Shown: piece after piece, positions 34,828-64,000 of the stretch
Numbering within the stretch: the first letter of the stretch is position 1
Layout of the letters: each line of letters opens with the position of its first letter
NCBI RefSeq assembly: GCF_964204645.1
Contig: NC_134032.1
Location: 2,752,175-2,816,174, forward strand
Length of the DNA: 64,000 nucleotides
Source: Tubulanus polymorphus
Taxonomy: Eukaryota > Animalia > Nemertea
Direction: 5' to 3'
Notes under the pieces: generated by a model
What the model saw: only the letters and a program-made list of their open reading frames with translations
Told to the model about the DNA's origin: nothing
Database searches by the model: none
Position numbers and translations under genes: made by a program

Positions 34828-34920
34828 CTGCGGAGAAATATATTAAAAGTCGTTGGAAATGCATATTTTGGCGTTTCATGATATTTCGAAGAAAATAAAA
34901 ATAAACTGTAGATTGTATTA

Positions 34921-35429: not shown

Positions 35430-35430
<1 letters not shown>
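34921..35430. mobile_element. Tigger/pogo-like MITE in GPCR intron 1, interrupted by a tRNA-derived SINE
   Basis: TA|cagtggaacctcgttagtacga at the left; inverted cgtactaacc motifs at the right, ending at a (TA)n tract. Confidence 0.5.
34970..35050 (+). mobile_element. tRNA-derived (Ser/Leu-like) SINE head or tRNA pseudogene
   Basis: GTCGC...GCGAC acceptor-like ends, A box AGGCCGTATGGTTAAAGC and B box GGTTCGAACCC. The anticodon arm does not fold canonically. Confidence 0.6.

Positions 35431-35482
<52 letters not shown>
35431..35482. repeat. (TA)26 microsatellite
   Basis: Read directly. Confidence 0.95.
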
Positions 35483-35485
<3 letters not shown>

Positions 35486-35553
35486 TTCTAGTGAAGGAAA
35501 GCCCAATAGAAGGGAAGAAGGCTTCGATTGTGGTTCGACTGTGTTGTACTTAC

Positions 35554-36755
35554 TGACATCGACAAAACACTAACATCTGCCATGGAAAGCGATTCCGTGT
35601 GAAAGTAAACATCGATTCGAGACTTGATCTTATCGCCCTTCGTTAAAACGCACAGTATGACGAGAAAGCCTTCAGATTTTACGCTAAGCGATTCCAGGGA
35701 GTTGTAACCGAGTAAAATAGCCGTTCCTACAACGCGTAAACCTTCTAGTTTATATACACCAATGACGTCACCGGATGTGACGACATCGCTAGTCCAGTTG
35801 AAGACGACGTACTGTAACACCTGCACTGCGATAGACCAGCAGTGTAAGTGTTTTGATCGAGTTACTATGTGTAAACTGTTGTCATCGGGAATGAGCACTC
35901 CCGATTCGTTGTCAGAGATCTGAATCAACGAATTAGTGACGTTCCAATCGGATATTTGGTAAATTTGCACTACTAACTGCGCATGAAATTTGAAATAATA
36001 CGACAAGCCTGAGATGGTAGCCCTGTTGGATTTCGTATAAAATGTTACCGATGGTTGTCCGGATTGTTCGTGTATATTGGCGATAGGTTCACTGCTGGTG
36101 TTCCAGCCGTCATAAATTCTAACCGTAGCCGATTCAAAAATACGTATTAATTTGAAACTAACCTCTACGAATGTCAGATTCAGAGCATAATCATCCGCCA
36201 GTCCGATCCATTCTAAATAGAGCTGGCATTGTAATGTTTTTATCGCGAATTTGTACCCTTCCGATGTTTGTAACTTGCTCAAGTGAAGAAGATAGGGTGT
36301 TCTACAGTTATGACTCAAATTCAAACGGCTTCGTTGATGGCGATATACGATATAAAGCCGACTTCCTCGCGCACCGTCGACGTTACTTCTAAATATCAAC
36401 GAGATCGAATCGTTACGGAGGATTTCTCGTTCTCCGTCACCGCAGAATCTGCTGTCAGACTCGCCGACGAGAAGGTAGTCATCCTGGCAGAATATCGACG
36501 ACTCGATATCGTAGTAAAGTTTGATGTTGAAAGTTCCCCCGGGTGAAGAGCCGTTGACGAACCAACCACATTCAACACCGCGCGTTAACGACGGGTAACT
36601 CGGTGAAACGATGTAACCGGACATAGAACCTACGGGGTACCAAGTGTTGTTACAAGACGACTCGACCGTCACTGAGTCGGGCAGATCGGCGGCGCGTGCG
36701 ATTTTCGCCAGACGATCAGCGACGCTACAAACAGCGCTCTCAGTCGCTGCTCCAT
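35554..36755 (-). CDS. GRL101/LGR-like GPCR, exon 1 (signal peptide plus CUB domains; 1-nt frameshift near 36710)
   Basis: ATG at 36755 gives MEQRLRALFVASLIV, which joins LAKIARAADLPDSVTVESSC only via a frameshift. CUB motifs SGYIVSPSYP, CGW, CQDDYLLV, RFCG and FRSN; donor TCA|gtaagt, phase 0. Confidence 0.7.
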
Positions 36756-37246
36756 ACCGAACAACGAATACGTGACCGAATAAGCAAAATAATTAGAAAT
36801 TCTAGTTCTGATTTCGTTTCGTCGAACACCAACTCGACGCTAATTACAATTCCTCCAATTACGCGTTACTGCAAAGACACGAAATGAATATTTTTCTTTC
36901 CAGCTGCAATTATTTCTATTAAATAAAAAAAAAAACTGGTTTAAATTTTCAACTAAATTTCGCATACGCCCCAGAGTATTACCCGTAATTGGCTATGTTT
37001 AAAAAGATATAGACGAATACGTGGAATTCGTTGCGATAATCTTATCAGAACTAACACTAAACCAGAATAGAGGTTGATAGCATCTACGGGCCTTTTTAGC
37101 TTGAAACACGGAGAGCATGATTAAACCACCACTGACGCATTCACTTTATCGAGAATATTCTTCATACTTTTACTCTTGATATCTTAACAGACTCGCATGA
37201 AGGCATTCGATGGTCACTGCCGTTGTTATCACGGGTTGTGACTTCA

Positions 37247-40300: not shown

Positions 40301-40726
40301 TAGGCTTTTCGGAGTGCACTTTTATCAATGGATGACGATTCTTTGCGTTATTCCTGTCGCTGTTTAGACCCGGTAATTATGCGGGATTAATTCATAATAG
40401 ATTACTTTACGCAAATTCGAAACGGTCAGGCGCTGAGTTATATTTCTGGCAGAATTTAAAATTACGTTTATAAGCTGTTGGTAGTCGAATCTGAGAGGAG
40501 TTACATTTTATGAAAAATTTTTGGCTGGAAAGTGGACCATTTATAATAATAATAATATTCAACAGGAATACAAGAGGGTTTCTGCGAAAGCAGCAGAAAC
40601 CCTAAATATTCACGTCGTGTGTATATATCATTTACGTCACCGGCAGTTGTGTCGCAGAGGTCTAATAACGGCCACATCGCATTTACAAAATAATTACGAC
40701 TCAAGAACTGCGTCTCACTTACATCA

Positions 40727-40967
40727 GAAAACATCGCTTTGAATTACATCAAACCTGACAGAAAACATCGTCTTAAATTACATCAAACCTGACAGAAAAC
40801 ATCGTTTTGAATTACATCAAACCTGACAGAAAACATCGTCTTGAATTACATCAAACCTGGCAGAAAACATCGTCTTGAATTTCATCAAACCTGATGGAAA
40901 ACATCGTCTTGAATTACATCCAACCTGACAGAAAACATCGTTTTTCAATACATAACATCGTCTTAAA
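40727..40967. repeat. Minisatellite, 34-bp unit (gaattacatcaaacctgacagaaaacatcgtctt)
   Basis: About 6-7 head-to-tail copies with no unique spacers. Confidence 0.9.
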
Positions 40968-42670
40968 CTACATTGACATTCAAAATTACCCTATAGATAA
41001 ATGTAATTATTGTGGAGGAATTTATAAAAACACACTCTCGATTCGCCGCTATAACGCCTGAAATCATTTATGATATTACAAAACATTACATTCTAAACCA
41101 ATATATGTACGTTCAATTTCGTCGAATTTCATATTTATTCCTTTCAAATTTTTCTGAGGTTTCTGGAATACTAACTGCACGCAGCATTCTAAAGAATATC
41201 AACCGTTTACATAAAGAGTGGTCTGTGAGTTTGGCACCGAAAAGGTTTAGCTGTCTGAACCCCTCGCCCACACTCTAAATATTCAGGGCTTCACCTGAGG
41301 ACTAATAAAATGAACTAGAAACACAAGATATAAGACATTATATCAGAACACTTTCAAATTTCAAAAACCTGAATATCCACACTTCACATGTGTTCAGAAC
41401 TTCACCTGAGACATTTCTAATTGAAAATGAACTACAAACACCAGACATTAGACATTTTATCAGCTCACATATTTATCATATTTATCCATAGCTGATCGCC
41501 CATACTTCACATGTGTTCAGAACCTCTGGGTTGAAAATTCCCCCGAAGACGGATCAGGACTGTAAAATGTTTTAAAGGGGATGCACTGAAGGGTTCAGGA
41601 CAGAATATAGTGTGAAGGAATGCAAGGCTGCACATTGATACCTCGATTTCGTCGTTGGATCTGATTGACTGGTATTCGATCGACTTGCAAACGCGTCGTA
41701 CAATTCTAATTCCGCCGATTTGTAATTTTTACGGGGCATCGTATCGTGAAGAAAATGGCATGTACGCGTTCGCGAACTTAATGGTTGAGCAGCGCGAACA
41801 TGACTGGATGCAGTATGATGGATATCTTAATCGGAAGCAAAATCGAGAACCACGAAATCGATGACGAGTTTAACACGTCGACTACGGCGTGGATCGTGTA
41901 GGGCGTCCACGCCGCGCAGAACAACAACATCGAGTCTTGGTTAGTAGCGAGCGCCATCTTACGGCGTTTCTTGCGTCCTTTCGAATTAAGTCCTCTGTTG
42001 GTGTTTATAGAACGTGAATAACATAGCTATGAGAGGAATGATGAACCCGCCGATGAAGGCCGATAGTAAAAACGAGACGCACGATTTCTTCTTGTTTGGA
42101 AAGTTGTACGAACAGTAAACGGGTATAACACACTCCGTATGCTGGACTCACACTTGACATTCGGAGTAAGCGTTCGCTGTGGGGGAAAGGAGACCGTTTG
42201 CTGTGTCGCTTGAAGTGGTTATCGAGTTTTATGCGGCTTTAGGCCTACCGGTACTGAGCTTTACTGTCTCAAACAAACACAGTATAATTGTTGCGTTTAT
42301 TAACGGACTCATTGGATTGAACTTCAAAAGAAAATTTACGATATTTAGGTGGGTTGTTATTCAATAGGCCTACGACCAATCTGTCCAGATGTTAGGCCTA
42401 CGCATATACATAGGCCTACATAGGCTAGTAGCCTCTACTAGGTTAAAAATAAGTTCACTGTAAAGGAGTAATCAGATTTATTAAAATGCATGTTAATTAG
42501 TGATTAACTGGTTGTGACTTGCAACGATCAATCACAATTATCAATTTTATTGCCAAAAATAAAATGTTTTTTGAAAATTTTTTTGAGCAGACAGCTTTAT
42601 AAGCCAGACTTCTCATTTGAAATTTTTCATCATAAATGAAACTGGTATTTCATTAATTCCTAATGACTTA

Positions 42671-45935: not shown

Positions 45936-46119
45936 GTAAGTTATTTGCCTATTATATTTGCATCTGGTTATCGCGGTAATCAAAGGGGATGAATAACACA
46001 CGAAATCTGCCGTAAACTATGCATGATTCTAACCCACAAAATCTAGAAAGGGGATACCTCAAACCAGTCGGCCAAGGCGCTTTTATGATATCTCAAGACG
46101 ACACTGTTACCAAAACGGA

Positions 46120-46530
46120 AGTAATAGGGGTAATGGGCTTTCAAGCCAAAGGTCGAACGGTCGAGCTCATTAAAAAACAAAACATTAAAAGTAATTTAAA
46201 ACTATAATATATTTTCATTACCGTGTGTATTTTATATTATAACTAAATATTTATTCTAAGATATTAATAATTTTAATTTTAAAAGCATATTGTATTAAAT
46301 CAATTGGTCGCTCCACTTCGCTACCGCTCCGCTCCGCGACCAATTGATTTATTTACAATACGCAAATTCATATAATCAAATATATTTTAATAATAATTAT
46401 TATTCTATTATTCAACTGAAATACACACGGTTATGAAAATATATTATAGTTTTAAATTACTTTTAATGTTTTGTTTTTAATGAACTCGACCATTCAACCT
46501 TTAACCTGAAAGCCCATTACCCCTATTACT
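46120..46530. repeat. ~410-bp imperfect palindrome at the left edge of the viral region
   Basis: agtaataggggtaatgggctttca... pairs with ...tgaaagcccattacccctattact. Inner stem taaatcaattggtcgc/gcgaccaattgattta surrounds a GC-rich loop centred at ~46323. No TSD found. Confidence 0.85.
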
Positions 46531-46736
46531 CTTAAAATATTCATGTAAATGAATAACATTTAAATTGACAGATTATTCAATATAAAAGTATATATTTACA
46601 ACATTATTTCAATATTCATATTTGTGTGAGTTAGATTTTTAAACATTAAAAGTGTTAGTAAAGTGTGATTGAAATAATACATGATATAAATCATTGAACT
46701 TCTAAAATCAATTTTAATAAAAAATTTAGTATTAAA

Positions 46737-49700
46737 ATGGAAGCAAATAAGTACTACTGCCCAACATGTAATATCAATATAGATAAATCCCAAAAAGCAA
46801 GACACAATAAAACTAAAACACATTTAGAGAATAAATTGAAATTAGAATATGAAGATGATATATTAGAAACTAAATTAGATGAATTAAAGAATGAAAAAGA
46901 AACATACAAATGTGATACATGTAATCAATCATTCAGTGATAAAAGATATTATAATGAACATTTAAAATCTAAAAGTCATATTAGAAATAAGAATAATGAT
47001 ATTTTAGGTGAAGATTATTTTGATAAAGATAAGAAACAGAAGACAATTAAAAGCATAAAAAATAAATTAAACAATAAAAGGCCATACATGGAAGATGTAA
47101 GAAATTATATTAATTCATTAGATAATAAAAAAGACATAGATATAACCGAAGCATTTAAAAGTGATATTGGTCCAGCAGCTATTGAGTTTAAATTTCATAA
47201 AGGAAAAACATTAGAAGAAAATAAAAAACATTTAGAAAATATGAAAGAAATAATAAAAATAATAACTGATGTTGAATATCCTAAAATAAGTATATCTTCT
47301 AAAGTTAAATTCATAAAATCTGAAGATAAACCAATATATAATATAAATTCTCATTCACAACATATTATATCTAAACAACATATAGATGATAAATTAGATA
47401 AATGTTATAATGAAGTAAAAACTCAAATAGAAGAGAAATATTTTGAAGGATCTGGTTTAATATTTGATGAGATAATATTTATGACTTTACATGTTTATAA
47501 AACAAAATATAATAAGTTAACTAAATCAAAACCAATTGATGAAAATAATTTATCATATTATAAAGAACCAGATATTGAAGCATCGAGTTATATTAAACAA
47601 CCATTTAAAACTAATGCTGTAATAAATGTACAAAATGAAGATGAAAATGTTTTCTATGGGCTATAATAAGTTGTTTACACCCAGTTGAAGATTATAAACA
47701 AAATAGTTTTAGATTAACTCATTATAAACCATTTGAAAATAATTATAAGATAGATAAGTATCCTGTTATAATTAAAAACATCCCAAAAATAGAAAGAGAT
47801 TATAATATAAAGATAAATGTATTTGATTTAATCAAATTACCAAATACAAAAGGTAACAATATAAAACATTATACATTAGAACCTTTATATCTATCAAAAG
47901 ATTATGATTCAAATGATGTTATAGATATACTATATAATGAGAATCATTATATGTGGATTAAACAAATCGATTTATTTTTTAAATCAGAAAATGATCACCA
48001 TAAAATATATCTTTGTAGAAAATGTTTACATAAATTCAGTAATGAAAGTACATTATTAAATCATAAACAATTATGTGAAAATCGTGATTATTGTAAATTA
48101 GTTTTACCAAATGAAAAGGATAAAATATTAGATTCAAAAAATATGATTACAAAAATAAAGTTCCATTTGTTATATATGGAGATTTTGAATCATACATTAT
48201 ATCTAAACAACATATAGATGATAAATTAGATAAATGTTATAATGAAGTAAAAACTAAAATAGAAGAGAAATATTTTGAAGGATCTGGTTTAATATTTGAT
48301 GAGATAATATTTATGACTTTACATGTTTATAACACAAAATATAATAAGTTAACTAAATCAAAACCAATAGATGAAAATAATTTATCATATTATAAAGAAC
48401 CAGATATTGAAGCATCGAGTTATATTAAACTACCATTTAAAACTAATGCTGTAATAAATGTACAAAATGAAGATGAAAATGTTTTCTATGGGCTATAATA
48501 AGTTGTTTACACCCAGTTGAAGATTATAAACAAAATAGTTTTAGATTAACTCATTATAAACCATTTGAAAATAATCATAAGATAGATAAGTATCCTGTTA
48601 TAATTAAAAACATCCCAAAAATAGAAAGAGATAATAATATAAAGATAAATGTATTTGATTTAATCAAATTACCAAATACAAAAGGTAACAATATAAAACA
48701 TTATACATAAGAACCTTTATATCTATCAAAAGATTATGATTCAAACGATGTTATAGATATACTATATTATGAGAATCATTATATGTGGATTAAACAAATC
48801 GATTTATTTTTTAAATCAGAAAATGATCACCATAAAATATATCTTTGTAGAAAATGTTTACATAAATTCAGTAATGAAAGTGCATTATTAAATCATACAC
48901 AATTATGTGAAAATCGTGATTATTGTAAATTAGTTTTACCAAATGAAAAGGATAAAATATTAGAATTAAAAAAATATGATTACAAAAATAAAGTTCCATT
49001 TGTTATATATGGAGATTTTGAATCATTAAATAAAGAACTAACTGATCAAGATAGAAAAGAAATATATCATAAAAGAAAGAAATTAAATTCTAATGAAAAT
49101 GATTTTTCAGATGAACCACCAAAAACAAATACTATTAAAAAGATTCATCAATCAGCTGCTGCTTTCGGGTTATATATTAAATCTGATTATCCAGAACTAA
49201 TTGAAAGTGAATATTATAATTATAGAAATGAAAATGTTATCAATCATGTTTGTGACTTATTAATTGAATATGAAATAAAATTTAATGAAAAGTTAAATAA
49301 AAATATAGAAATTATAATGACAGAAGAAGATAAAGAAGCATTTGCGTTTGCAGATAAATGTTATTATTGTGAAAAGATATTTAATTTTAGAGATAAAAAA
49401 GTAAGAGACCATGATCATTTGAACGGAAAGTTTAGAGGCGCCGCACATGAGAATTGTAACTTACAAGCTAAGAAAATTAACTTTGTACCAGTTATATTTC
49501 ATAATCTATCAGGATATGATGCACATTTATTTATCAAACAGTTATGTCATAAAATAGAAGAAATCAACAATGAAATAGAAAGATTAAATTCAAATAGATC
49601 AAAAGATAAAATACCAACTTATAAATTTAGAATGTTAGCTAAAACATCTGAGAATTATATATCATTCCAATTTGGTTGCCTAAGATTTATAGATTCATAT

Positions 49701-51591
49701 AGATTTTTAAATAGTTCATTGGATAGCTTATCAAAATCATTAGTTGATGATGAATTAAAGATATTAAAATAATATTACCCAAATATTGATGATTTTAAAT
49801 TAATGAGATATAAAGGAGCAATTCCATATTCTTTCTATAAAAATCATAATGATTTTAACATAACTGAATTATTAAAAGAACAATTCTATGATGAATTAAA
49901 AAATGAATATGTTAAAGATGAAGTATATAATAGAACATTGAATATTTGGAATCATTTCAAAATAGAAAATCATGGACAATTAGTAGATTTATATCTAAAA
50001 TCAGATGTATTATTATTAACCGATATATTCGAAAGGTTTAGAGATGTAAACCTAAAATATTTTAACATTGATCCTTGTCATTGTTATTCAAGTCCAGGTT
50101 TAACATGGGATTGTGGATTAAAATTTACAGATATAAAAATGGATTTGTTAACAAATATAGATCAATTACTATTATTTGAAAAATCTATAAGAGGAGGAGT
50201 TTCAGGTGTATTAGGGGATAGATATTTCAATGTAAATGATAACCCTGGATACAAGTTATTATATATAGATGCAAATAATTTGTATGGTTGGGCAATGATG
50301 GAACCACAACCTTATGGAGTATTTGAATTAACTGAAGTTTTACAGAATGAAAATAATGATAAATTTGATTGGAAGAAAAGAATTCTAGATATTGCAGATG
50401 ATTCAGATACTGGTTACTTCTTTGTTGTAGATTTAGAATATCCTGAAGATAAAAAATTTAAATCTAGAAATCTAGCTTACTGTCCCGAACATAAAACTGT
50501 AACTCATGAAGAACTATCAAATTATCAAAAAAGAATTAAACCCGAAAATCATATTCATACAGAAAAAATAATGGTAACTCAGGAAGATAAATATAATTAT
50601 GTAGTACATTACAGAATGTTAAAGTTTATTTGAATCAAGGAATGATTATAAAAAAAGTACATAGATATATTTCATTTAGCCAATCTAAGTGGTTAGAAAA
50701 ATATATAGATTTTAACACCAAACAGAGAACTGAAGCTAAAACTGATTTCGAAAAAGATTTCTTCAAGTTAATGAATAATGCATTCTATGGTAAGACTTGT
50801 GAAAATATTAGAAATAGAAATGATATTGAGTTAGTTAGTAATGGTAAAAGGATAAGGCATTTACAATTTTTAGGTAACAGAATATTTGATGAAAATTTAG
50901 CTGCAGTTAAAATGAGAAGAACATCAATGAAATTTAATAAACCAATCTATGTTGGTGCTTCAGTTTTAGAATTATCAAAATTACTAATGTATGAATTCTA
51001 TTATAATGTATTACAACCACTTTTTGGAGAAAAACATATAGAAATATTATATTTTGATACCGACAGTTACATATTAAAGATAAAAACTGATAACATAACA
51101 GATGATTTAAAAACATTAAAACATCATTTTGATTTTAGTAATTATCATAAAAATCATGAATTGTTTTGCAATGATAATAAAAAAGTTCCAGGGAAGTTTA
51201 AGGATGAATTAGGTGGTGAAGAAATGATTGAATTCATTGGTATTAGATCTAAAATGTATTCATATAAAACTAAAGAACATAAATCTAAAAAGTTAAAAGG
51301 AATAACCAAAAGTGTAGTAGAAAAAAGAATATTCATTTCAAAGATTACATCAATTGTATATTCAATGAAGAAGTTAGAAAACATAAGATGAGATGTTTAA
51401 GATCTGAAGATCATGAAATGTTTATTGAAGAAATTGAAAAGATAAGTCTAAACCCATTTGATGATAAAAGATATATTCTGGATGATGGAATTCATACAGT
51501 TGCTTATGGTTGCAATTTAGATGAATACTTAAAATTTAAAAGAGAAGAAACAAAAGAGAACGAGATAATGAAAAGAATTCTAACGTGTTAA
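46737..51591 (+). pseudogene. polB: Protein-primed family B DNA polymerase, copy 1 (intein-free), disrupted
   Basis: N-terminal C2H2-like fingers; SSYIKLP..AVINVQN; Exo motifs VIYGDFES, FHNLSGYD, LYLKSDV; Endo VII-like VRDHDHLNGKFRGAAHENCN; Pol motifs YIDANNLYGWAM, KLMNNAFYGK, YFDTDS; FDDKRY. Frameshifts at ~47650, ~50630 and ~51330, stop at 49770, and an internal 832-bp duplication. Confidence 0.92.
47363..49025 (+). repeat. 832-bp tandem duplication inside polB copy 1
   Basis: ctaaacaacatatagatg occurs at 47371 and 48203, and both units run to ggagattttgaatcat. Confidence 0.9.
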
Positions 51592-51716
51592 TCAAATTTT
51601 AATAAAAATATGTATTATAAATGGAGAGTTAAGTAATTGGGAAAGTAGGCTTTCAGATCAGAGGGCGAGAGGGCGAGACACCACTCATCACCACAAGTAA
51701 TTTTTTGTCCTAATAA

Positions 51717-54700
51717 ATGGGAGAGAATGAACACCAGCCAGAAAACAATAATGTTAATAAAAATCAATATTATTGCCAATATTGTAAAAAATACATCGAT
51801 ACATCTCATAAAACACGACATGAAAAAACTGCAAATCATATAAAAAATGTAATAGATTTTGAAACTCCAGAAAATTCCAATGAAAGAAAAGAAAGATTAG
51901 AAAATATGAATGTGGATGAAATAAAATATGAAGTTTGTAATGAATTTATAGTAAAAAGGAATTATAATAGACATCTCGAATCACAAAAACACCGCCAAAA
52001 TTTGAGTAATAATGTTTTAGGAAAAGATTATTTTGACGATAAACCTCAAAAAGTAAAAAACCAACTTCAAAAACTAAATCCATTTCAAATAAACCTTACA
52101 TGGAAAATGTTAGAAATTATATTGATTCACTAGAAATAAAAGATACAATTGAAATTTTAGAAACATTACATAGTAAAATTGGTCCTGCAGCTATTATATT
52201 TAGATTTTTTAAAGGTACAACAATAGAAGATTATAGTACATTTAATGAAATAATAGAAAAATTACTAGATTTGATAACAGATGTTGAATATCCAAAAATT
52301 AGTATCTCTGGGAAAGTAAGTTTTATAAAGTCAGAAGAAAAAATGAATTATAATATTCAAACACACTCTGAAGAAATAATTTCAAAAACACAAATAAAAG
52401 AGAAGTTTGAAAAAATATTTGATGAATTTAAACGTCATATTGAAGAAAAATATTTTGAGGGTTCTGGCTTAACATTGAACGAAATTATATATTTAGATTT
52501 AAATGTTTATAATACAAAAAGGAATAAAACATCAAAAAGTAATAAAATGTTTAAAAATGATTCAAACTTTACAACAGAAAAGGATATTAAAGCATCATCT
52601 TATATTAAATTACCATTTACAACAAAAGCAGTAATAAATGTTCAAAATGAAGATAATAAATGTTTTCTATGGTCAATTATTAGTTGCTTACATCCATCAC
52701 AGGAAAATGTTTGTAGAATAACAGATTATCGGAAATATGAAACATTATATAAAATTGATCAATATCCAGTAACTATAAAAATGATTCCTAAAATAGAAAA
52801 AGTTAATAATTTAAAAATAAATGTATTTGAATTAATGCAATTACCAAAGACAAAAGGTGAAAATATTAAAGATTATACATTGGAAGCTTTATATTTAACA
52901 GAATATTATGATGATGAAAATGCTATAGATTTGTTATATTACAAAAAAGATGAAAATGAACATTATATGTGGTTAAAACAAATTGATTTATTCTTTAGAA
53001 CAGAAAGTGATCATCATAATAAAATTTATCTATGTAGAAAATGTTTATCTAAATTTATGACTGAGAATGCGTTACTAAAACATAAAGAATTATGTGATAA
53101 TAAAGATTTTTGTAAATTAATAATGCCAACAGAAAAAGATTATAAATTGAAATTTACTAATCATAAATTTAAGAATATTGTTCCATTTGTAATTTATGGG
53201 GATTTTGAATCGTTGAATAAAGAATTAACTGATCAAGATAGAAAAGAAATATATAACAAAAAGCAATTATTAAAATCAATGGATAAAGGAAATGAATTAA
53301 ATGAAGACGCAACACAAGACCCACCAATTATAAATACAATTAAAAAAGTTCATCAAAGAGCTGCTGCTTATGGAATTGACATCATATCAAATTATCCCGA
53401 ATTATATGAAAGTCAATATATTTCTTTTAGAGGTGAAAATGTAGTTAATGATTTTTGTGATAAAATGATTGAATTAGAAAGTGATTTTACAAAATTATTA
53501 AACAAAAATAAAAGAATAGTTATGACAAAAGAAGATGAAATCGATTTTAATTATGCAACTCATTGTTGTTATTGTGAAAAACGTTTTTATTCATTTGATA
53601 AAAGAGTTAGAGATCATAATCATTTGAATTCAAAATATCGTGGAGCTGCTCATGAAGATTGCAATTTACAAGCTAAAAAAGTAAATTTCATACCAATATT
53701 ATTTCATAATTTATCAGGATATGATACCCATCTATTTATAAAACAATTATCGGGAAAATTGGGCGCAATTAATCAAGAAATAGAAGAATATAATGCTATG
53801 AATGAAGCAAATGTAAGAAAATATGATTTTAAACTATTAGCTAAAACATCTGAAAATTATATTTCATTTCAATTTGGTTGCATTAGATTTTTAGACTCTT
53901 ATAGATTTCTAGCAAGTTCATTAGATAATTTATCAAAAAGTTTAGTTGATAATGATTTTGTTATAACTCGATATTATTATCCAAATGAACAAGATTTTAA
54001 ATTATTGAGATATAAAGGCGCAATTCCTTATTCATTTTATAAAACACATGATGATTTTAATGTAACAGAATTATTAAAAGATCAATTTTATGATCAATTA
54101 AAAGAGGAGTATGTGAAAGACGAAGTGTTTAATAGAACATTAAATATTTGGAACCATTTTAAGATGAAAAATCATGGCGAATTAGTTGATTTATATTTAA
54201 AATCAGACGTTATGATATTGGCTGACATATTTGAAAAATTTAGAGAAGTTAATTTGAATCATTTTAATGTTGATCCTTGTTATTGCTACTCTAGTCCTGG
54301 TTTAACCTGGCAATGTGGTTTAAAATATACAAATGTAGAATTAGATTTATTAAAAGAACCAGATATGGTTTTATTATTTGAAAAATCAATTAGAGGTGGA
54401 ATTAGTGGTGTTATGGGAGATAGGTATTTTAAAGCAAATGATGAATATAAATTATTATATATTGACGCCAATAATTTATATGGTTGGGCAATGATGCAAC
54501 CTCAACCATATAAAAATTTTATATTAACAGAAGTTGAAAATGGTGATAAAACTGATTGGGAAAACGCAATTGCGAGTTTAAAAGATGAAGCACCAATTGG
54601 TTATTTCTTTGTAGTTGATTTAGAATATCCTGAAAATATAAAGTTTAAAACAAGAAACTTACCTTATTGCCCAGAACATTTAACTGTAGATGAAGAAAAT

Positions 54701-56736
54701 AAAACCGAAAGATCATGTTTTTACAGAAAAATTAATACTTACTCAAAATAATAAATACAATTATATTGTTCATTATAGAATGTTAAAATTTTATCTAAAA
54801 CAAGGAATGAAATTAAAGAAAGTACATAGATATATTGAATTTAATCAATCGAAGTGGTTAGAAAAATATATAGATTTCAATACTCAACAGAGAACCATAT
54901 CAAAAACAGATTTTGAAAAAGATTTCTTTAAATTGATGAACAATAGTTTTTATGGAAAAACATGTGAAAATATTAGAAATAGAAATGATATTGAATTAGT
55001 AAATAATTCTGAAAGATTAAGACATTTACAATCAAGTCCTAGACATTTAGGAAATAAAAGATTTGAAGATTATTTAACAGCAGTTAAATTAAAAAGAACA
55101 TCAATGAAATTTAATAAACCTATATTTATTGGTTCGACTGTTTTAGAAGTATCAAAATTATTAATGTATGATTTTTATTATAATGTTTTACAACCACTTT
55201 TTGGGGAAAAGCATATTGAAATATTATATTTTGATTCTGTAACAGCTGACACCCCAATATTATTAAAATGTAATAATAAAATATTGGTAAGAAGAATTTC
55301 AGAAATAATTCAAAAACAAAATGAATGTTATATTTCATATGGTGAAAAAGAATTAATACAAATAAATGGATTAATGGATGTTTGGACAAGAAATGGATGG
55401 AAAAAATTAAAGAATATTATTAGACATAAAACAAATAAGAAAATCTATAGAGTTAGAACTAAATTAGGATTTGTTGATGTTACAGAAGATCATAGTTTAA
55501 TTAAACGAAATGGTGATGAAATAAAACCAACTGATATAAAAATTGGAGATGAATTATTACATAAAAGATTTTCCCCAAGAATGAATCATATGTCATTTGA
55601 TGAAATAATTGATAATATTTATAATATAGAACCCGAAACATTTGAAGAAAAAGAATATTCTATCAAAGGATTTTTCATGGGTGATGGTTCAGCAGGTGTG
55701 TATAATTATGTTAATCGCACTCAATATTGCTGGTATTTATGCAATCAAGACTTAAAATTATTAGAAAGAATTAAGAAATTCTGTGAAGAAGTTTATTCAC
55801 ATAAAACATTCAAAATCATAGATGTTATGAAATCATCGCAATGTTATAGAATACATGTGAATAATCCTAAAGATTTTGCTATAGAATATAATGATGAATT
55901 CTATATTCATGCAATAGTGAAAAGTAATACTTCGACAAAAGAAAAGATAGTTCCAGATTATGTATTGAATGCAAAAAATAATTTAAGAAAATGGTTCTTC
56001 ATTGGGTTCTATGCTGCAGATGGTTCAAAAAGTTTCAAAAACCGAAAAATAATATCTTTAGCTCAAAAAGGAAAAGTTGCTATATCAGGATTAAATATAT
56101 TATGCAATTCATTAGGTTTTAATATGAATATTGGATTGATTAAATCTAAACAAAATTGCTTTAATTTAAGCCATGTAGAAAATGAGTTAACTGAAGAAGT
56201 TAAAGATTTATTTGAAATATATAACCCAACAGATTATGTTTATGATTTATCAACTGAAGATGGTACATTTAACTGTGGATTTCCATTAATAGCGGTCAAT
56301 ACTGACGCCTACATACTAAAAATCAAGACAAACGACATAACAAAAGACTTAAAAACATTAAAACATTATTTTGATTTTAGCAATTATCCTAAAGATCATG
56401 AACTATTTAGCAATGATAATAAAAAGATTCCTGGTAAATTTAAAGATGAATTAGGAGGTGATGAAATGATTGAATTTGTTGGGATAAGAAGTTAAATGTA
56501 TAGTTACAGAACAAAAGATCATGAAGCTAAAAAGTTAAAAGGAATAACTAAACATGTGGTTGATAAACATATAGAATTTCAAGATTATCAATTGTAATGA
56601 AACACAAAATGAATTGTTTAAGATCAGAAGATCATGAGATGTACATTAATGAAGTTGAAAAAACTAGTTTAAATCCATTTGATGATAAAAGGCATATTTT
56701 AGATGATGGTATAAAAACATTACCTTATGGCCATTA
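51717..56736 (+). pseudogene. polB: Protein-primed family B DNA polymerase, copy 2 (intein-containing), disrupted
   Basis: Same domain order and motifs as copy 1 across ORFs 51717-52133, 52100-54751 and 54690-56495. Frameshifts at ~52060 and ~54698, stop at 56493, C-terminal SLNPFDDKRHIL at ~56665-56702. Confidence 0.92.
55236..56300 (+). mobile_element. Intein (355 aa) with LAGLIDADG homing endonuclease, in polymerase motif C
   Basis: YFD|SVTADTPILLK ... DVTEDHSL (block B TxxH) ... KGFFMGDGS and IGFYAADGS (two LAGLIDADG helices) ... YVYDLSTEDGTFNCG (block F) ... IAVN|TDAY. Removing it restores the YFDTD motif seen uninterrupted in copy 1. Confidence 0.93.
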
Positions 56737-58047
56737 AAACATAAAATCAATATCATCATACTCGAAATCACTATTGGCTTCTTCATTTTCATTTAATTGT
56801 TCAGGTTCTTCTTCCATTCCATTTTTCTCATTTAAATAAAGTTCTATCTTGTTCCACATTTCATCTCGCTCTCTTTGTTTCTTTTTGTTTGTTAATTCAT
56901 CAAATGGAATTATAATATCTAGGTTTAAATAATTTACAATCTTAATTAAAAAGAATTCATAATTTATTGAATCTGTTATTCTATTTTCCAAATGATACAT
57001 TAATATTTGTTTGAATATTTTTTTTATATTTTTCATATCTTCTTCTGTTAATTTAGGTTTTTCATAATAATCGTTAAATAATAAATATAAATACATTTTC
57101 TTTTGTTTTGTGTTAAATGTTGATGGAATAATTGTTTTTATAATATCTTTCTTAGTTATTTCACCATTTTTATTTTCTATTATTTTCATTTTTTCAAGCC
57201 ATTGCATATATTCTGGTGTATGATCTTCTATAGAAAATATTTTAAAAATTTCATCAAGATAATTTAATTTTGGATCTATGAGAAAATCTCTAGTTTTTTC
57301 TTCACCCAATAAATTCTTTTGCCATCCACAATCAACACAAAATAACACAGTACCTTCTTGCCTTAAGGTCGCATAAATACATTGTGGACATTTTCGTTTA
57401 TAATTTATTGGTAATAGATCTTCATTAAGCTCTTGGTATTTTCTTACGTTTTCTTTATGTTTTATTGTTCTATTATGTAGATTTGAATTACTTGTTGTAA
57501 TAATCAATTTACAATATTTACAATAATATGTTTTCTTGTTAATTCATTATATTGTTTTTCTAACTTTTCAACTGTTTCTTTATTATCTGGTAACGTTTTC
57601 TCATATTTTATTTTTTCTAATAAACTATTTTTTCTTTCATTGAATTCAGTTTCAAATTTATTAGAAATTTTATCTATATGTACTTTGCGAAATTGATGAT
57701 TCTCCCAATCTTCTATATTTTCACGGTTATATTTTTTTCGACAAGGCTCATAGAAATGATCTTTTATATTATCCTTATCATAGAATAAGAAAGGTCTTTT
57801 CCAAATAACTTCAGGTTCAACTTCAGCAGAATTACTATTACTTTCATTACTATCAACATTAGCCGTTGCGCCATTAATTCTACACTTCTCTGAATGTTTT
57901 TAACATAATTTCTTGAGAATAATTTATTACATTTTGGGCAGTTTATTTTAGGGGGTTTATAATTTTCTTCATGTTTTTTCATATGTCGAGCCATATTACG
58001 TTTCTTAGAAGTTCACCACAAATTTCACATCCTATCTTCTCATCCAT
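56734..58047 (-). pseudogene. Poxvirus/NCLDV VLTF3-like (A2L-type) late transcription factor with N-terminal zinc fingers; 5' half frameshifted
   Basis: Zn ribbon CPQC...FCVDCG and C-terminal SINYEFFLIKIVNYLNL...TNKKKQRERDEMWNKI resemble the VLTF3 pattern Y.YVL.K...LL...LK..K....D.IW.KI. Upstream TAAATG start MDEKIGCEICG...RHMKKH and CPKC in shifted frames. Confidence 0.7.
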
Positions 58048-58115
58048 TTATTAAGGAAAAATTTTATTAAAATTAATTTTTAGTGATGAGCGGTAATTTT
58101 TTTATGTTATAAATA
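58048..58115. promoter_or_regulatory. Compact divergent promoter region (VLTF3-like gene / penton)
   Basis: Minus strand has AATTTTAATAAAATTTTTCCTTAATAAATG; plus strand has TAATTTTTTTATGTTATAAATAATG. Confidence 0.65.
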
Positions 58116-58874
58116 ATGGTAGAATTAAAAGAATACAGAATATTTGTTGATTCTAGAAAACTTACAAATTATAAATCACATAATTTACTAGTACAATTAG
58201 ATAGAGAATTTAAGAATTGTGTTGATTTAAAATTAGTTAATATAAGTTTATGTAATTCTTTTTACAATGTATCGGATAAAAGTTTTGATCATAGAGACTT
58301 TTTAATTCATATTAGAAATATAAATAAATGGTTTCAACTAATTTTAAAACCAGGGTTATATAATTTAGAAACATTAGCCCAAGAAATTAATCGGAGAGCA
58401 CGATTAAAACTTAAAAGTGAAGATAAATTTTCAATTAGATTTATAAAAAGTGATAGTTCTAATAAAATTAAAATAAAGTTAGATGATGAAAACAAACATG
58501 CATTTATTGTAAGGAAACCTTTAGCTAAACTGTTAGGAATTAAACCACAAATTGTTACAGGAAACGTAGACGGTAATTCAAATATAATACCTTTTACACA
58601 TTTTTATATTTATTGCAATTTAATCGAGCCTACAAAAACATTTGAAGCAACTAAAGATACAACATGTAATTCTAGTATATTAAATATTTTACCATTAAAA
58701 AATGTTAAACAATTTGGAACGCAAATAAATTATAATTTAACAGAATGTGATTTCAAACCATGCATTCCTCGTTTTAATAATTTTAGATTAGAAATTAGAA
58801 ATCATAATGGATACTTAATTGATTTAAATAATTTCCCTGTAATTTATGAATTAGTTATAAGATGTAAAGAGTAA
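58116..58874 (+). CDS. Minor capsid protein (penton, single jelly-roll)
   Basis: IFVDSR...LVNISLCNSFYNV...PGLYNLETL...LAKLLG...YIYCNLI...LEIRNHNGYLIDLNN...ELVI matches the Polinton/virophage penton pattern. Intact 252 aa. Confidence 0.8.
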   Translation: MVELKEYRIFVDSRKLTNYKSHNLLVQLDREFKNCVDLKLVNISLCNSFYNVSDKSFDHRDFLIHIRNINKWFQLILKPGLYNLETLAQEINRRARLKLKSEDKFSIRFIKSDSSNKIKIKLDDENKHAFIVRKPLAKLLGIKPQIVTGNVDGNSNIIPFTHFYIYCNLIEPTKTFEATKDTTCNSSILNILPLKNVKQFGTQINYNLTECDFKPCIPRFNNFRLEIRNHNGYLIDLNNFPVIYELVIRCKE

Positions 58875-58890
58875 TTTTTCACCTATATAA

Positions 58891-59253
58891 TTGAATATAA
58901 CTGTTGGACCGAGTATATGTTTTGGGTTTGATTTTAAACGTGAGAAAGAAATGAAATTTAACATAATTGATGTAATAACACATATCAAAAATATTGCATT
59001 TTCTAATGAAATAACATTTGAGTATGAAACAACAATTGATAAAGAAACTTTAAATGTGGAAAAGATTACCGAGTCTTTAAGATTTTATGAATTAGATGAA
59101 GATTTTATCATATATGATATCAAAAACATATTATCCAAAATATATGATAATCATAAAACTAGTAATAAAAAAAATGTTGAATTAATCATAAATAAGTTAA
59201 CTAAATATTTTGAAGATAGTAATTTTTTTGTGGATAATAACTGGATTATATAA
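58891..59253 (+). CDS. Hypothetical viral protein
   Basis: 120-aa ORF whose TTG start sits exactly where the conserved promoter predicts ATG. Confidence 0.55.
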   Translation: MNITVGPSICFGFDFKREKEMKFNIIDVITHIKNIAFSNEITFEYETTIDKETLNVEKITESLRFYELDEDFIIYDIKNILSKIYDNHKTSNKKNVELIINKLTKYFEDSNFFVDNNWII

Positions 59254-59437
59254 TGGCGCATTACTATCAGTTGGAACTGTTGGTTATTCAATGGTATTAA
59301 AAAAAGTATTCAAAATGGGAAGTGTTAATGTTGATAGATTTGATATAAATGATATTTTAAAGTTAACATTAGCAGTTACTTTATCTAATTTAACTATTGA
59401 TTATTTGGAAAAACAAAAATATATTCCTCCCATATAA
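59210..59437 (+). CDS. Small membrane-associated viral protein (5' end uncertain)
   Basis: Two hydrophobic segments (GALLSVGTVGYSMVL; ILKLTLAVTLSNL). A promoter-like T run at 59220 has no matching TAAATG, suggesting a small deletion. Confidence 0.55.
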   Translation: MKIVIFLWIITGLYNGALLSVGTVGYSMVLKKVFKMGSVNVDRFDINDILKLTLAVTLSNLTIDYLEKQKYIPPI

Positions 59438-59464
59438 GAAGTGTGTAATTTTTTTGCTAAATAA

Positions 59465-59887
59465 ATGGCTTCTGCAATTATAACTATTATAGGATCGGCA
59501 ATTGTTAACGCTTTAGCATTTACTGGTGGTGGTTATTTATTTAAACATATTGATAAAAATAGTTCATTAGGAGAACAAAGAAGACATAACTTAGCGTTAG
59601 AGAAATACAATAAAGCTGCAGAAGAATATAGAGAAAAGAGACAAAACTATATGGATTACATCAATAAAGAATTATATGATCAGAAGATTTCACATAGAGA
59701 TTTTCAATCAGTTGATGATGCAATGAGTTTATATAACGCAGTAACAAATAAAGAAAAATTACATCTATACAAACCTAAATTATCAGATTATTATACCCCA
59801 AGTAAAGAACAACAGAAATATGAAATAATATGGATTTTAGGTGGAACAGTTATTGTTATATTTGTTGCTTATAAGTTTACTAATTAG
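59465..59887 (+). CDS. Viral membrane protein (N-terminal hydrophobic helix, coiled coil, C-terminal TM)
   Basis: MASAIITIIGSAIVNALAFTGGGYLF...RRHNLALEKY...IIWILGGTVIVIFVAY; has the promoter motif. Confidence 0.75.
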   Translation: MASAIITIIGSAIVNALAFTGGGYLFKHIDKNSSLGEQRRHNLALEKYNKAAEEYREKRQNYMDYINKELYDQKISHRDFQSVDDAMSLYNAVTNKEKLHLYKPKLSDYYTPSKEQQKYEIIWILGGTVIVIFVAYKFTN

Positions 59888-59906
59888 TAATTTTTTTGTT
59901 AAATAA

Positions 59907-60341
59907 ATGGAAGATAAAGTTGATAGTATTGATATTATTCCTCATGATATAAATAAAACTAAATTAAAAACATATTTAGAAAAACAAATATTAGAATTTG
60001 AAAGTGACTTAAAGATAAAAAAAAAAAAATATTTAAAAAGTAAAATTATATATTATTTGATTATAAGTGGTTCGGTTACAATTAGTTCTGTAATAACATT
60101 TCTAGCAATATTCAGCCCATTAACACCTTTAGCTATATCAATTGGTGTATTAGGATTAAGTTCAAGTGTTTTAACTGGTATAAGTTCAAAATTAAATATA
60201 AAAAGTAATAAAGAAAAAATTAAAACTAATATAAAAGCAATTAATAAATTAAAGAACACACTAGATTATATAATAAGTTTAAATGGTCATATAACAGTTG
60301 AAGAACAAGATAAATTATTAAAAGAATTAGTTAATTATTAA
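59907..60341 (+). CDS. Viral 2-TM protein
   Basis: Two adjacent hydrophobic helices flanked by basic coiled segments; has the promoter motif. Confidence 0.75.
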   Translation: MEDKVDSIDIIPHDINKTKLKTYLEKQILEFESDLKIKKKKYLKSKIIYYLIISGSVTISSVITFLAIFSPLTPLAISIGVLGLSSSVLTGISSKLNIKSNKEKIKTNIKAINKLKNTLDYIISLNGHITVEEQDKLLKELVNY

Positions 60342-60357
60342 TTTTTTAGTTATATAA

Positions 60358-61660
60358 ATGGGGTTTCCAAAAGCTTTCCAATATAATAAATCAATTAAAT
60401 ATAATATTCCGGCAATAGATTTTAAGAAAAATATTACATATAAAAATATAGTTTTAAATTCATTAACTAATTTAGAAATTTATGTTAATGAATCACAGTT
60501 TTTTATTTTTAAAATGGAAAATATATTTAATACATATGAAGTTACTTTTACTCGAGATGAATATCATATATATAAAGTAAAATCTAATATGAAATATTGG
60601 CAGAATCAATTAAATTTTGCTGTTTATTGTGCAACAACAGGATGTGGAATAAGTTGGAATGATAATTTAAATAACTTAGATAAAAATTTAAAGTATTCTG
60701 ATTTAAAATTAATTCACACAATATTTAGATTTCACACATATTTTCAAATCAGAATAATATTAAATGAATTAGAATGTCCTTTACCCGGGTCTAAATATTT
60801 TAAAGAATTGGATAATAATATTAATATATCTAAGTTTTATAAAATATGTAATGAATTTAATATAAATATTAATTCCGATTTCAGAGCGCATGGTAAATTG
60901 CAAGGTGTCGGTGAACAGTATGAAATAAAAAGAATTGATTATATGCATAGAATTGGAGCTTATCATAATTATAAAATTGATAATAATAATGGTTGGGTTA
61001 ATTTCATTTTAGAAAATGGTGAAGGTTTTACAAAATCAGGTATACAAAGAATAAATCAATCTATTAGAATTTATTTGATATGTATTTTAGGTGCGCAAGT
61101 TGAAACAAGATCACCGATAATTGGAAATGATAACACTTCATTCGATGCGCAGAAACAATTTAAAGTTTTATTTGAAGATTCAATTCATAATGATAAAAAT
61201 AGATCGATTCCAGAAAACATTATAAGATATCAAAATTATTTAGATAAATCTCATGTAAGACTTAATTATTGTATAGGCCCTAATCTATTAATTATTTCTA
61301 ATGATTTAGTATTAAAGATGGGAAACATAATTGGTTATAATAATCTAATTAAAACTGCAACAATAAATAATTCATTTGGGTTAAATGATATAAATAAAAA
61401 GATTATTACTGCTCCAAAATTAATGGAAGGTGAAAAAAATAAAAAACACATTCAATCAACTGAAACTAAAACTAAGAATATTAAATTAGATAATGATTCT
61501 AAAATAAAAGATTACAATACATCAGAAAATAATAGAACTGATAAAATTCAACATGATATAATTAAACTAAATGATGATAATAAATCCCATGAAATTTACT
61601 AAATTAGCTATAACTTGTATAGGAATTGTAATCGGAGGAATATTATATTTTAAATTTTAA
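60358..61660 (+). CDS. Hypothetical viral protein with C-terminal TM anchor (1-nt frameshift near 61597)
   Basis: 414-aa ORF with WQNQLNFAVYCATTGCGISW. The shifted frame continues TKLAITCIGIVIGGILYFKF* to 61660, and this stop overlaps the next promoter. Confidence 0.7.
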
Positions 61661-61676
61661 TTTTTTTATTATATAA

Positions 61677-63371
61677 ATGGATGTAGAAGGTGGAGAAGAT
61701 ATTGGAATGGATCCTTTTGGTGATGAACGCGGTATAAGTGATGAACCACAACCTGATTTTAATGAAACTAATATTGATAATGATGATGAATCAGCATATA
61801 ATACTAATTTAGGTGAAGATGATGATTATAATGATGATGATGATGATCCCGAATTACGTGAAAAATTAAATAAATATTTAAAAGCTCCTGAAATTGGTAG
61901 AATTTCAACTAGAAGAGAAAGAAAAGAATTTATGGAACTATTAGAAAAACAAAAAGAAAAATATCCCGATGAACCTATGGAATTATATAAAATGAAATCT
62001 AGAGTAACAGATACAATTGTTAACGAATTATTACCAATAGTTGTATTACATGAAATTGATACAGAAGATGTTGTAGAACAAATTTTTAAAGATGACCCAT
62101 ATTTCACAGATAATTTAGAATTTAAAAATGATTCATGGTATTATAATGTTAATTTAAATAACAAAATTGTATCAATTCAATTATCTAGAAAGGATCAAGA
62201 AAATATTTATGAACCTGAAATGCTAGCAAGATCTACAATTGAACGTTCAAAAGGTGGCGCAGAATTTCTAAGAATTATATGGAATGCACTCGATAGAATA
62301 AATGAAGAAGAACCAATTCCTAAAATTGATATAAACAAATATTCACCATTTAAAAATCCATTTAAAAATCCAAATCCTACTGATTTTAATCCAGAAATGG
62401 AAGAGAATAGAAATCGATTAGATAGATTAATATCTTCAACACCCGAAACATCGAGAAGAGACACTCAACCAATTGATAATTATTCAAGTCAATTACAATT
62501 AGAAAAACAAATTGATAGATTAAGAGATTCAGAAGAACTGATGAATAGTGCTGGAATAAATCGACTGCAATATTTACTAGAAAAAGGATTTCTTAATTTA
62601 ACTGATGAAGAATTAGAAGCATTTCCTGAACAAATACGTAGAGAAATTAAAGGTATACAAGTATCAGCTGATGAAATTGCTAATATTAAGATGAGATTTT
62701 CTAAAATAACCATGTTAGAAAAAGAATTAACTAATGCAGATGAAGAATTAAAACAATTAGAATTAAATAGAGATCATCAAGTAGTTTATGAAGCTGATTA
62801 TGAAAGCAGAAAGTTAGCTTTTGTAAAAGAAATAGATGATTTAGAATATAACATAAAATTACAAAAAGAAGAAAGAGATATATTATTAAAATCATATGAT
62901 CTTAATCATATTAAAAAATTAAAAGTTATTTTTAAAGATTTGTTGATAAAACCAAATTCTGAAATATAATTAAAAGACAGAATAAAGTTATTATTTAAAT
63001 TAGAAGGAATAACAGTTCTTTCAATTCTAACAGCTGTAACTATGGTATTTACAACAATTGGTTTAGCAATATCAAATGCTTTGAAATCTACTCCTACTCC
63101 CACTCCCAATAAACCAGATAAACCTCCAGGTAATAATTCTATACATGATAAAGTTAAGGATGGTTTAAAGAAATTAGCAAAATATTTATGGGAACTATCA
63201 AAGAAATCTGCTGCAGCTTTACCAGGAATTATTGCTTCAATTGTTGGTTTTATATTGAAATCTGCAGGAAACATTATTAACTTTGCTGCTGAACATATTA
63301 TTTTATTTTTAATTACAGTTGTAAGTGCTATTATTTTTGGGTTAGTAAACATGATATCAAAAAATAAATAA
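61677..63371 (+). pseudogene. Acidic/coiled-coil viral membrane protein with C-terminal hydrophobic and amphipathic helices; one premature stop
   Basis: ORFs 61677-62969 and 63042-63371 are in the same frame, separated only by TAA at 62967-62969. Confidence 0.7.
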
Positions 63372-63391
63372 TTAATTTTTTTGTTAAATAA

Positions 63392-64000
63392 ATGAGTGGG
63401 AGTTATATAAGTCCTTCTAAGAATCATAGAATATCTAATGCTATTAAAGCAGAAAGATCACATCATATAATTACTCATAACCCTTCAAATATTAATCCCG
63501 ATGAAACTTTATATGTTAGAATCCCTCGATTAACACAAAATACTTTTTATGTTCCAAATAGTATTTATTTATCGGCTGATATAAAAGTAATCGGTAATAA
63601 TAATAATTATGTCGTTGATAATGTTGGAAGATATTTGATTAAAAAATTAACAATAAAGATTGGTCCAGAAACAGTTTCCTCATTAGATGATTATAATTTA
63701 TTTATGCATTATAAAGTTGTATGGTTAACTAAAGAAAATAGAAATAATATGATATTTCAAGGAATCCAATCAGAAAACCAAAATAAATTAAGATCAGATG
63801 CTAATAGCGCAATATTAACTAATGATGTAGATAAATTGATAAAAAGTATATATGGAAGCAAATATAAAATTCCATTAGATTTTGAATTGATAAATAATAA
63901 TGCACCTTTATATAAATACGCAATTCAAGAAGATGTTATATTCGAAATAACATTTGCTCCTGTAAATGAAATTGTATTATCTAGCGTTAATAAAGATATG
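63392..64000 (+). CDS. Major capsid protein (double jelly-roll, Polinton type), 5' part
   Basis: Not in the ORF track because there is no stop. Open for 203 codons: MSGSYISPSKNHR...IITHNPSNINPDETLYVRIPRL...VPNSIYLSADI...VDNVGRYLIKKLTIKIG...YKIPLDF, matching the N-terminal jelly-roll of Polinton MCPs as I recall them. Has the promoter motif. Confidence 0.8.
   Translation, partial: MSGSYISPSKNHRISNAIKAERSHHIITHNPSNINPDETLYVRIPRLTQNTFYVPNSIYLSADIKVIGNNNNYVVDNVGRYLIKKLTIKIGPETVSSLDDYNLFMHYKVVWLTKENRNNMIFQGIQSENQNKLRSDANSAILTNDVDKLIKSIYGSKYKIPLDFELINNNAPLYKYAIQEDVIFEITFAPVNEIVLSSVNKDM

Follow-up and report, generated by a model that had tools for sequence, protein, structure and literature searches.

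A clade of pol-c homing inteins in the polymerases of Polintons, including one from an animal genome

Introduction

We describe a clade of homing inteins that reside at the pol-c site of the protein-primed DNA polymerases (pPolBs) of Polintons. One or more of its members come from animal DNA; the member studied here lies at positions 55236-56300 of the 64,000-nucleotide stretch of DNA analysed here (the window), within an AT-rich Polinton-type element. The reading that we favour with reasonable confidence is that of a homing intein in a Polinton pPolB, belonging to a single clade of such inteins across many Polinton families, which likely came once and anciently from the RNA-primed PolB of a giant virus and has likely persisted by homing. 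A broader reading, which we offer only tentatively, is of an active, so far unrecognised homing-intein system in animal genomes, derived from giant viruses, that sweeps through multi-copy germ-line Polinton families, drives the escape of insertion sites in empty copies and marks these Polintons as virophage-like passengers of giant viruses.

In surveys, the inteins of eukaryotes come from fungi, algae, protists and giant viruses (PMC5784728, in part), and the available portion of a review describes multicellular organisms as lacking them (PMC5874633). A search of the full-text literature on Polintons, adintoviruses, pPolBs and animals did not find a description of a Polinton intein, although supplements, subscription papers, Repbase or InBase could hold one. 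None is described in the available passages of PMC12220804, PMC3671162, PMC5718144, PMC13768754 and 10.1101/299784; the words 'intein' and 'LAGLIDADG' do not occur in the accessible text of PMC10748475, nor does 'intein' in that of the main text of PMC8502044. A clade of endonuclease-bearing inteins in Polintons, one of them demonstrably within animal DNA, constitutes a route into animal chromosomes and adds protein-primed polymerases to the known intein hosts. It also offers a marker, readable in sequence, of earlier encounters between Polintons and giant viruses, and a source of new Ser1/Thr+1 inteins and of LAGLIDADG nucleases whose hosts are mesophilic.

An unbroken intein with a homing endonuclease

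The insert is a stop-free run of 1065 nt (355 codons) in frame within the open reading frame at 54690-56495 in the window translation, and is bracketed by YFD of the N-extein and TD of the C-extein. A first-pass annotation of the sequence had claimed such an uninterrupted insert splitting YFD from TD, and an intein-free second copy of the polymerase (below) confirms it. Profiles, the empty copy, individual residues and the predicted fold identify the insert as a class-1 Ser1/Thr+1 intein of 355 residues on the forward strand, with a LAGLIDADG homing endonuclease, at the pol-c site.

The N-terminal splicing region (55236-55571, forward strand; residues 1-112) contains Ser1, Arg63-His64 and the block B pair Thr83/His86. 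The endonuclease domain, recognised by profile, residues and predicted fold, covers residues 135-312 approximately (55638-56171, forward strand), and its LAGLIDADG motifs lie at 55668-55688 and 56004-56024 on the same strand (residues 145-151 with Asp150, and 257-263 with Asp262); profile, residues and predicted model all give two LAGLIDADG helices with acidic catalytic residues. The C-terminal splicing region (56187-56300, forward strand) holds block F Asp337, Val354 and Asn355, and the Thr+1 codon follows directly at 56301-56303. The canonical intein residues are complete except for the penultimate His, which is Val354. Every feature listed in the annotation (Ser1, TxxH, two LAGLIDADG motifs, block F, the terminal Asn, Thr+1 and the penultimate Val) has been located by residue.

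The Hint and LAGLIDADG profiles by which the annotation had proposed to check itself were all matched: TIGR01445 at 32.9 bits (cutoff 24.5), LAGLIDADG_3 at E 9.5e-6 (above cutoff), and Pfam Intein_splicing at E 6e-7, where the 29.7 bits fall below the cutoff of 35.8. The intein also matches PI-PkoII (E 5e-8). An AlphaFold model based on a 17-row alignment (pLDDT 90, pTM 0.90) matches the endonuclease-bearing inteins TliVMA, PhoVMA, PI-PkoII, PI-PfuI and PI-SceI, with a best E of 1e-18; according to this model, a Hint fold is present.

Arg63-His64 is likely motif NX, which the available part of PMC10189870 describes as needed in Ser1 inteins, its position here being assigned by analogy to that work. 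A His occupies the NX position in 26 of 27 pPolB inteins and in all 206 RNA-primed pol-c inteins. Val354 could impair Asn cyclisation. As a special trait of this intein the penultimate Val was considered and rejected, residues other than His being common across the family: the 206 RNA-primed pol-c relatives have His in only 88 cases, Lys in 87 and Val in 3, and the 27 pPolB inteins have His in 21, Lys in 4, Ser in 1 and Val in the window intein only. Some 40-55% of reads carry a compensating insertion and deletion in the endonuclease domain (55837-55843), and therefore at least two sub-lineages of the intein exist in the species.

The host polymerase and its empty neighbour

The intein host, polymerase copy 2 (51717-56730, forward strand), has a zinc-finger N-terminus and a DNA_pol_B_2 domain. 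PF03175 (E 9e-16) confirms that the element encodes a protein-primed PolB. The weak PF03175 score and an HNH-type insert suggest, at the level of sequence, the pPolB2 or Beta class; published work ties the EndoVII/HNH-type insert to the pPolB2 of nematodes and oomycetes. The annotation had called the intein intact, and this holds for the intein itself but not for its host gene, whose reading frame breaks near 52.1 kb and again near 54.7 kb and meets a stop at 56493-56495. That gene, broken in the window copy, is endogenous viral and not a cellular animal gene; the window copy is a decaying insertion in which the intein has by chance stayed unbroken.

Upstream lies copy 1 (46737-51509, forward strand), which is intein-free, carries an EndoVII/HNH insert and shares 74% DNA identity with copy 2. 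It aligns with copy 2 up to 55235 and again from about 56299, with the insert absent, and both intein junctions are thereby fixed; its empty site falls between 51058 and 51059, 4.2 kb upstream of the intein. Over 24 bases on each side, the flanks of the two sites differ once upstream and seven times downstream. Gene conversion between the copies near the site was considered and found unconvincing, with third-position identity of only about 0.79 there against 0.56-0.75 elsewhere. Copy 1 is also broken, by frame breaks and an internal duplication.

Several features of the pair can be recorded here. Two pPolB genes of complete length stand in tandem, both at multi-copy read depth. The duplication within copy 1 is an 832-bp tandem repeat at 47364-49099 whose units are 98-99% identical. 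The EndoVII/HNH-type nuclease domain (48783-49772, residues 179-228) also occurs in many relatives on long contigs.

Relatives in at least 12 other polymerase families

Intein searches covered the best 120 of 336 longer proteins, 43 proteins of similar length and the best 150 of 2112 representatives. From the matches and their cluster members we extracted 271 inteins with both ends, 261 of them distinct: 27 in pPolBs, 206 at pol-c of RNA-primed PolBs, 13 at a second PolB site and 15 elsewhere. The RNA-primed class was set by the junction motif, with PF00136 found in 12 of 12 proteins scanned, and 4 of the 27 pPolB inteins, whose flanks are short or divergent, were classed by hand. Among the matches listed, the closest to the window intein are all in pPolBs: P0283 (74%) and P0281 (67%), both partial, and P0002 (61%). 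The remaining pPolB inteins are 40-52% identical to it.

Counting the window, pPolB inteins at this same site span at least 13 families, and several of the clusters hold 41-136 members, on contigs of 50 kb to 1 Mb. P0013 is named from a symbiont MAG 'ex Ctena'; Ctena we take to be a clam, and the sequence is probably host DNA rather than symbiont. Ser1, Thr83, His86, Asp150, Asp262, Asp337 and Asn355 are kept in all 27 complete pPolB inteins at 42-77% identity, a conservation that is biased because the search query carried the endonuclease and decayed inteins or mini-inteins are therefore under-sampled. All 27, seven of which belong to one family, are 333-355 residues long, and none is a mini-intein.

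The same intein family also occupies D|TD-like sites of unrelated proteins (P0028, P0008, P0106 and P0321, with PF03747 and topoisomerase II domains), and non-allelic jumps must therefore have occurred. Searches for DNA around intein-bearing pPolBs did not find P0002 in viral contigs or P0003 and P0279 in metagenome contigs, and an extein query returned three viral loci, in none of which an intein start follows the motif. In two RNA-primed PolBs (P0010 and P0327) a second intein lies only three to five residues from the pol-c site. P0111, which is encoded on a 1.86-Mb contig and named as the DNA polymerase delta catalytic subunit of Chloropicon primus, carries a related pol-c intein (31%); here the intein may sit in a cellular Pol delta of the nucleus.

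Ancient residence, patchiness and apparent signs of homing

Over 28 pairs drawn from eight main-clade hosts, intein identity is 42-77% and extein identity 41-81%. Since intein divergence tracks extein divergence, entry was ancient, preceding the radiation of the main clade, and was not into the window element. The polymerase P0006 departs from this pattern: its extein is 18-26% identical to the others but its intein 42-49%, and the intein nests inside the clade (AU p=0.03). Belonging to a different pPolB class, P0006 may record a second jump of the intein, as judged from one 5.3-kb contig.

On an extein tree of 21 intein-bearing and 117 empty rows, built with the insertion site left out, presence of the intein requires 14 state changes, 11 of them forced by starred branches. 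Eight of 124 candidate rows were dropped as having no matched site (two with a truncated intein, three with altered empty sites, three unscorable). Such patchy presence fits gain and loss alike.

A more specific pattern is found in the P0003 cluster of 136 members, of which 15 were listed and 13 cover the site, seven filled and six empty, at about 99% identity. All ten fixed differences between filled and empty alleles fall within 53 columns around the site, with none in the other 1068 columns, in a tract reaching about 7 residues upstream and 44-45 downstream, although its boundaries were chosen after the data had been viewed and it represents, at the protein level, 13 of 136 members of one family. 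Close outgroups have the flank of the empty alleles, and at the junction the filled alleles agree with intein-bearing alleles from other families. One polymorphism, at residue 863, is present among filled and empty alleles alike. Five of the empty alleles vary at 12 of the 53 tract columns against 29 of 1068 elsewhere, as would be expected at sequence level if altered sites escape cutting. The search for a donor of the whole tract found none, the best outside match being the family's own empty alleles at 75%. In the P0007 family the sole empty allele has flanks identical to those of the intein alleles, which fits precise loss and an uninvaded site alike. Across 116 matched empty pPolB sites, Cys replaces Thr at +1 in 34 (P0162-P0278), a candidate escape variant.

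A single entry into a Polinton ancestor, followed by vertical inheritance and many losses and with homing no longer of consequence, would also yield the matched divergence of intein and extein in the main clade; the deep intein groups follow the extein groups, and P0142 looks like a precise loss. We nevertheless regard this history as unlikely, given that none of the 27 inteins has lost either endonuclease aspartate over deep divergence, that the P0003 differences are confined to the site flanks, that P0006 is incongruent, and that an intein is present in only 5 of the 117 scorable pPolBs among the best 120 matches. From these sequence patterns, homing appears to continue among Polinton inteins.

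Probable origin among RNA-primed pol-c inteins

The annotation had proposed comparing intein and extein phylogenies; the comparison, besides the matched divergence in the main clade, nests the pPolB inteins among RNA-primed pol-c inteins. All 27 form one clade among the 261 distinct inteins (FastTree 1.0), and the 13 pPolB representatives group together at 100/100 in an IQ-TREE analysis of 60 rows (13 pPolB, 42 RNA-primed, 5 others), with three inteins from other proteins as the root. Their sister group (97/95) is made up of 18 RNA-primed pol-c inteins, with the GVMAG loci L001 and L009 among them. Support at the node that unites both groups is 96/74, with 74 as the SH-aLRT value. In an AU test, from which 14 rows were dropped as near-duplicates or, in two cases, second-site inteins, a constraint uniting all 33 RNA-primed rows was rejected (p=0.003).

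PF00136 is present in 10 of 10 sister hosts scanned. By name only 2 of the 18 sister rows, L001 and L009, are giant-virus contigs; the neighbouring genes of L009 look giant-virus-like. A GTDB scan yielded 11 archaeal loci, of which a single near-full-length alignment has 25% identity and the other ten are short best segments; an archaeal donor was rejected on that sole near-full-length match. With the nesting, the AU result and the low archaeal identity, ancestry within giant-virus-type pol-c inteins is therefore the best reading of the sequences.

A donor among other carriers of RNA-primed PolB inteins, be it another group of large DNA viruses or a protist Pol delta, seems to us quite improbable. 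It gains from the sister group, most of which consists of unnamed metagenomic proteins and four of whose hosts have short, divergent PolBs (P0020, P0022, P0023 and P0337), and from P0111, named as an algal Pol delta; because this protein carries a more distant relative of the intein, donors need not be viral. P0111 falls far from the pPolB clade, however, while both L001 and L009 are in the sister group and the latter sits among giant-virus-like genes, and the prokaryotic matches amount to one near-full-length locus at 25% and ten short segments.

The annotation had inferred a transfer from an NCLDV PolB to a pPolB during co-infection. Ancestry among RNA-primed PolB inteins, including those on giant-virus contigs, is upheld; a jump into the window element is not, the nearest relatives being other pPolB inteins (61-74%) and intein divergence tracking that of the extein. 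Widespread Polinton inteins, which it had named as the finding that would count against the transfer, do in part exist, and they do not refute the transfer but place it earlier, in the common ancestry of many Polinton families. That the window element received its intein recently and directly, from a giant virus infecting the same cell, is already largely refuted and very improbable: the site and N-terminal motif are as in giant-virus inteins, but those are 41-44% identical to the window intein while closer relatives occur in other pPolBs, 13 families fall in one clade, and the GC content of the intein (25.4%) shows no shift from that of its extein (23.7%).

For the favoured reading of an ancient, homing Polinton intein, we propose a cycle whose splicing and homing steps are taken from established intein biology. 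In unbroken copies the precursor would splice by the class-1 oxyester route, using Ser1 with His64/His86, attack by Thr+1 and cyclisation of Asn355; this would restore the D-T-D motif, and the polymerase would work only after splicing. Once freed, the intein would cut related Polintons at pol-c sites that are still empty, and repair on the template of a filled copy would move the intein together with a short flank (in the P0003 family about 7 codons upstream and 45 downstream). Empty alleles with a changed site would escape cutting, which would explain why empty sites vary and why copy 1 has stayed empty next to copy 2. For the first entry, a Polinton and a giant virus would have had to share a cell; this is the weakest step.

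Comparison with known systems

The annotation's placement of the insert at the site used by the PolB inteins of Mimivirus (R322) and of archaea agrees with the available part of PMC549080. As published descriptions rather than sequence alignment have it, the window intein resembles that of Mimivirus R322 in its D|TD site, which separates Asp from Thr in polymerase motif C, its Ser1, Asn and Thr+1 junctions, its length of about 350 residues and its LAGLIDADG domain. Unlike the hosts of the Mimivirus and archaeal pol-c inteins, its own host is protein-primed (PF03175 type), has about 20% extein identity and is integrated in an animal genome.

According to PMC10710043 (in part), nuclear scaffolds from Klebsormidium, Tetrabaena and a labyrinthulomycete contain viral PolB inteins; there, as here, the intein reaches a eukaryotic nucleus within an endogenous viral polymerase gene. 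Those cases, as far as that excerpt goes, concern viral-like polymerases in algae and protists, whereas the present one involves a multi-copy animal Polinton in which empty and filled alleles occur together. The predicted homing cycle in a eukaryotic nucleus and the fold recall fungal VMA1/PI-SceI and Prp8 (PMC5784728, in part), whose hosts are single-copy housekeeping genes; the host here is a mobile-element gene with many non-allelic copies. Each genome contains many copies, filled alongside empty, which makes homing, co-conversion and the escape of sites directly measurable.

HNH and VSR nuclease insertions are known from Polinton pPolB2 (PMC10748475, in part), and the available text of PMC11071308 guesses that such nuclease inserts stem from intein invasions. 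The polymerase of the window element likewise has a nuclease domain, the EndoVII/HNH insert, but the published insertions are described in those portions without a splicing domain, and the window intein is a complete Hint and LAGLIDADG unit at a catalytic motif. Metazoan Hedgehog/Hint domains also bring the Hint fold and autoprocessing chemistry into animals (PMC5784728, in part); they have no endonuclease and, unlike the window intein, do not interrupt a conserved site with empty alleles. A Hedgehog-type Hint domain was rejected as the identity of the insert.

The element and its genomic setting

The Polinton-type element extends over 46000-64000 (no strand assigned), from a left edge near 46.0-46.1 kb, where GC content falls from about 38% to 23%, within a range of 21-26%, to a right end beyond the window. 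The left flank contains an LDLa-LRR-7TM rhodopsin-type receptor gene (30118-36792, reverse strand), in long exon-like reading frames split by frame changes, as well as a Mutator-like transposase (18214-19707) and a KDZ transposase represented by a KDZ-associated CxC4 domain (3540-4106). We take the receptor to be GRL101-like and assume that a receptor of this type points to an invertebrate animal. The receptor and transposases in the flank, the drop in GC and the multi-copy depth of genomic reads support an animal host for the element.

Read depth was taken from 12% of genomic run X5, which bears the same species label and comes from another study. The intein has a depth of 130-252 and the extein bins beside it 177-378, a ratio of 0.75; intein depth is also 6-10 times that of the lowest host bin. 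The C-extein stop of copy 2 is not shared by 220 of the 223 reads covering it. With depth at multi-copy level and the stop missing from most reads, the intein is therefore a trait of a multi-copy family, of which the window copy has decayed. Empty copy-2-type alleles may exist in the species: among the joints listed (15 of 42 and 15 of 597) no reads join copy-2-type flanks without the intein, and a 21-read junction carried copy-1-type sequence. An assembly chimera or contamination by free virus, for which one might cite the sharp GC change at 46 kb and the fact that no contig of the read runs examined spans the whole stretch, is hardly credible against precise junctions, Logan contigs crossing the 5' junction (X1 record 6, X2 record 13, X4 record 20), uniform coverage by another study's raw genomic reads and a large number of relatives whose contigs measure 50 kb to 1 Mb.

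Downstream of the polymerases is a gene for a VLTF3-like late transcription factor (56734-57207, reverse strand; Pox_VLTF3 E 1.1e-5, just above cutoff), broken further upstream. It is followed by a likely minor capsid protein (58116-58874, forward strand), presumably of the penton type, whose nearest clusters belong to Preplasmiviricota and Nucleocytoviricota, with DUF5901 on 15% of one cluster. A candidate double-jelly-roll major capsid protein (63392-64000, forward strand) is represented by its N-terminal part, which runs off the window; Capsid_N matches it at E 0.002, an Atlas comparison scores it 0.97 with recognition below that tool's threshold, and a single-sequence model has pLDDT 31. 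PDB sequence searches with both capsid candidates gave nothing usable, viral loci sought with a capsid query were not found, and AGTAGT is absent at 44-47 kb.

The pattern AATTTTTT-N(4-10)-ATAAATG occurs six times, each time ending at the start of an open reading frame, that of pPolB copy 2 included, against an expected 0.01 in whole-window shuffles, which understate chance in AT-rich DNA for a pattern drawn from the same data. The sites, each a T-run with TAAATG, are at 51699-51719, 59447-59467, 59889-59909, 60340-60360, 61659-61679 and 63374-63394, and the motif resembles, we presume, a poxvirus late promoter. Motif and VLTF3 gene together fit dependence on a giant-virus transcription system; they are consistent with a life style in shared cells and do not demonstrate it.

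Near the left edge, at 46120-46530, lies an imperfect palindrome of about 410 bp with inner arms 98% complementary and roughly 1000-fold read depth. On the host side are a 34-bp tandem repeat at 40691-40973 and, at 41.4-44.0 kb, very high-copy host repeats with a depth of up to about 2900.
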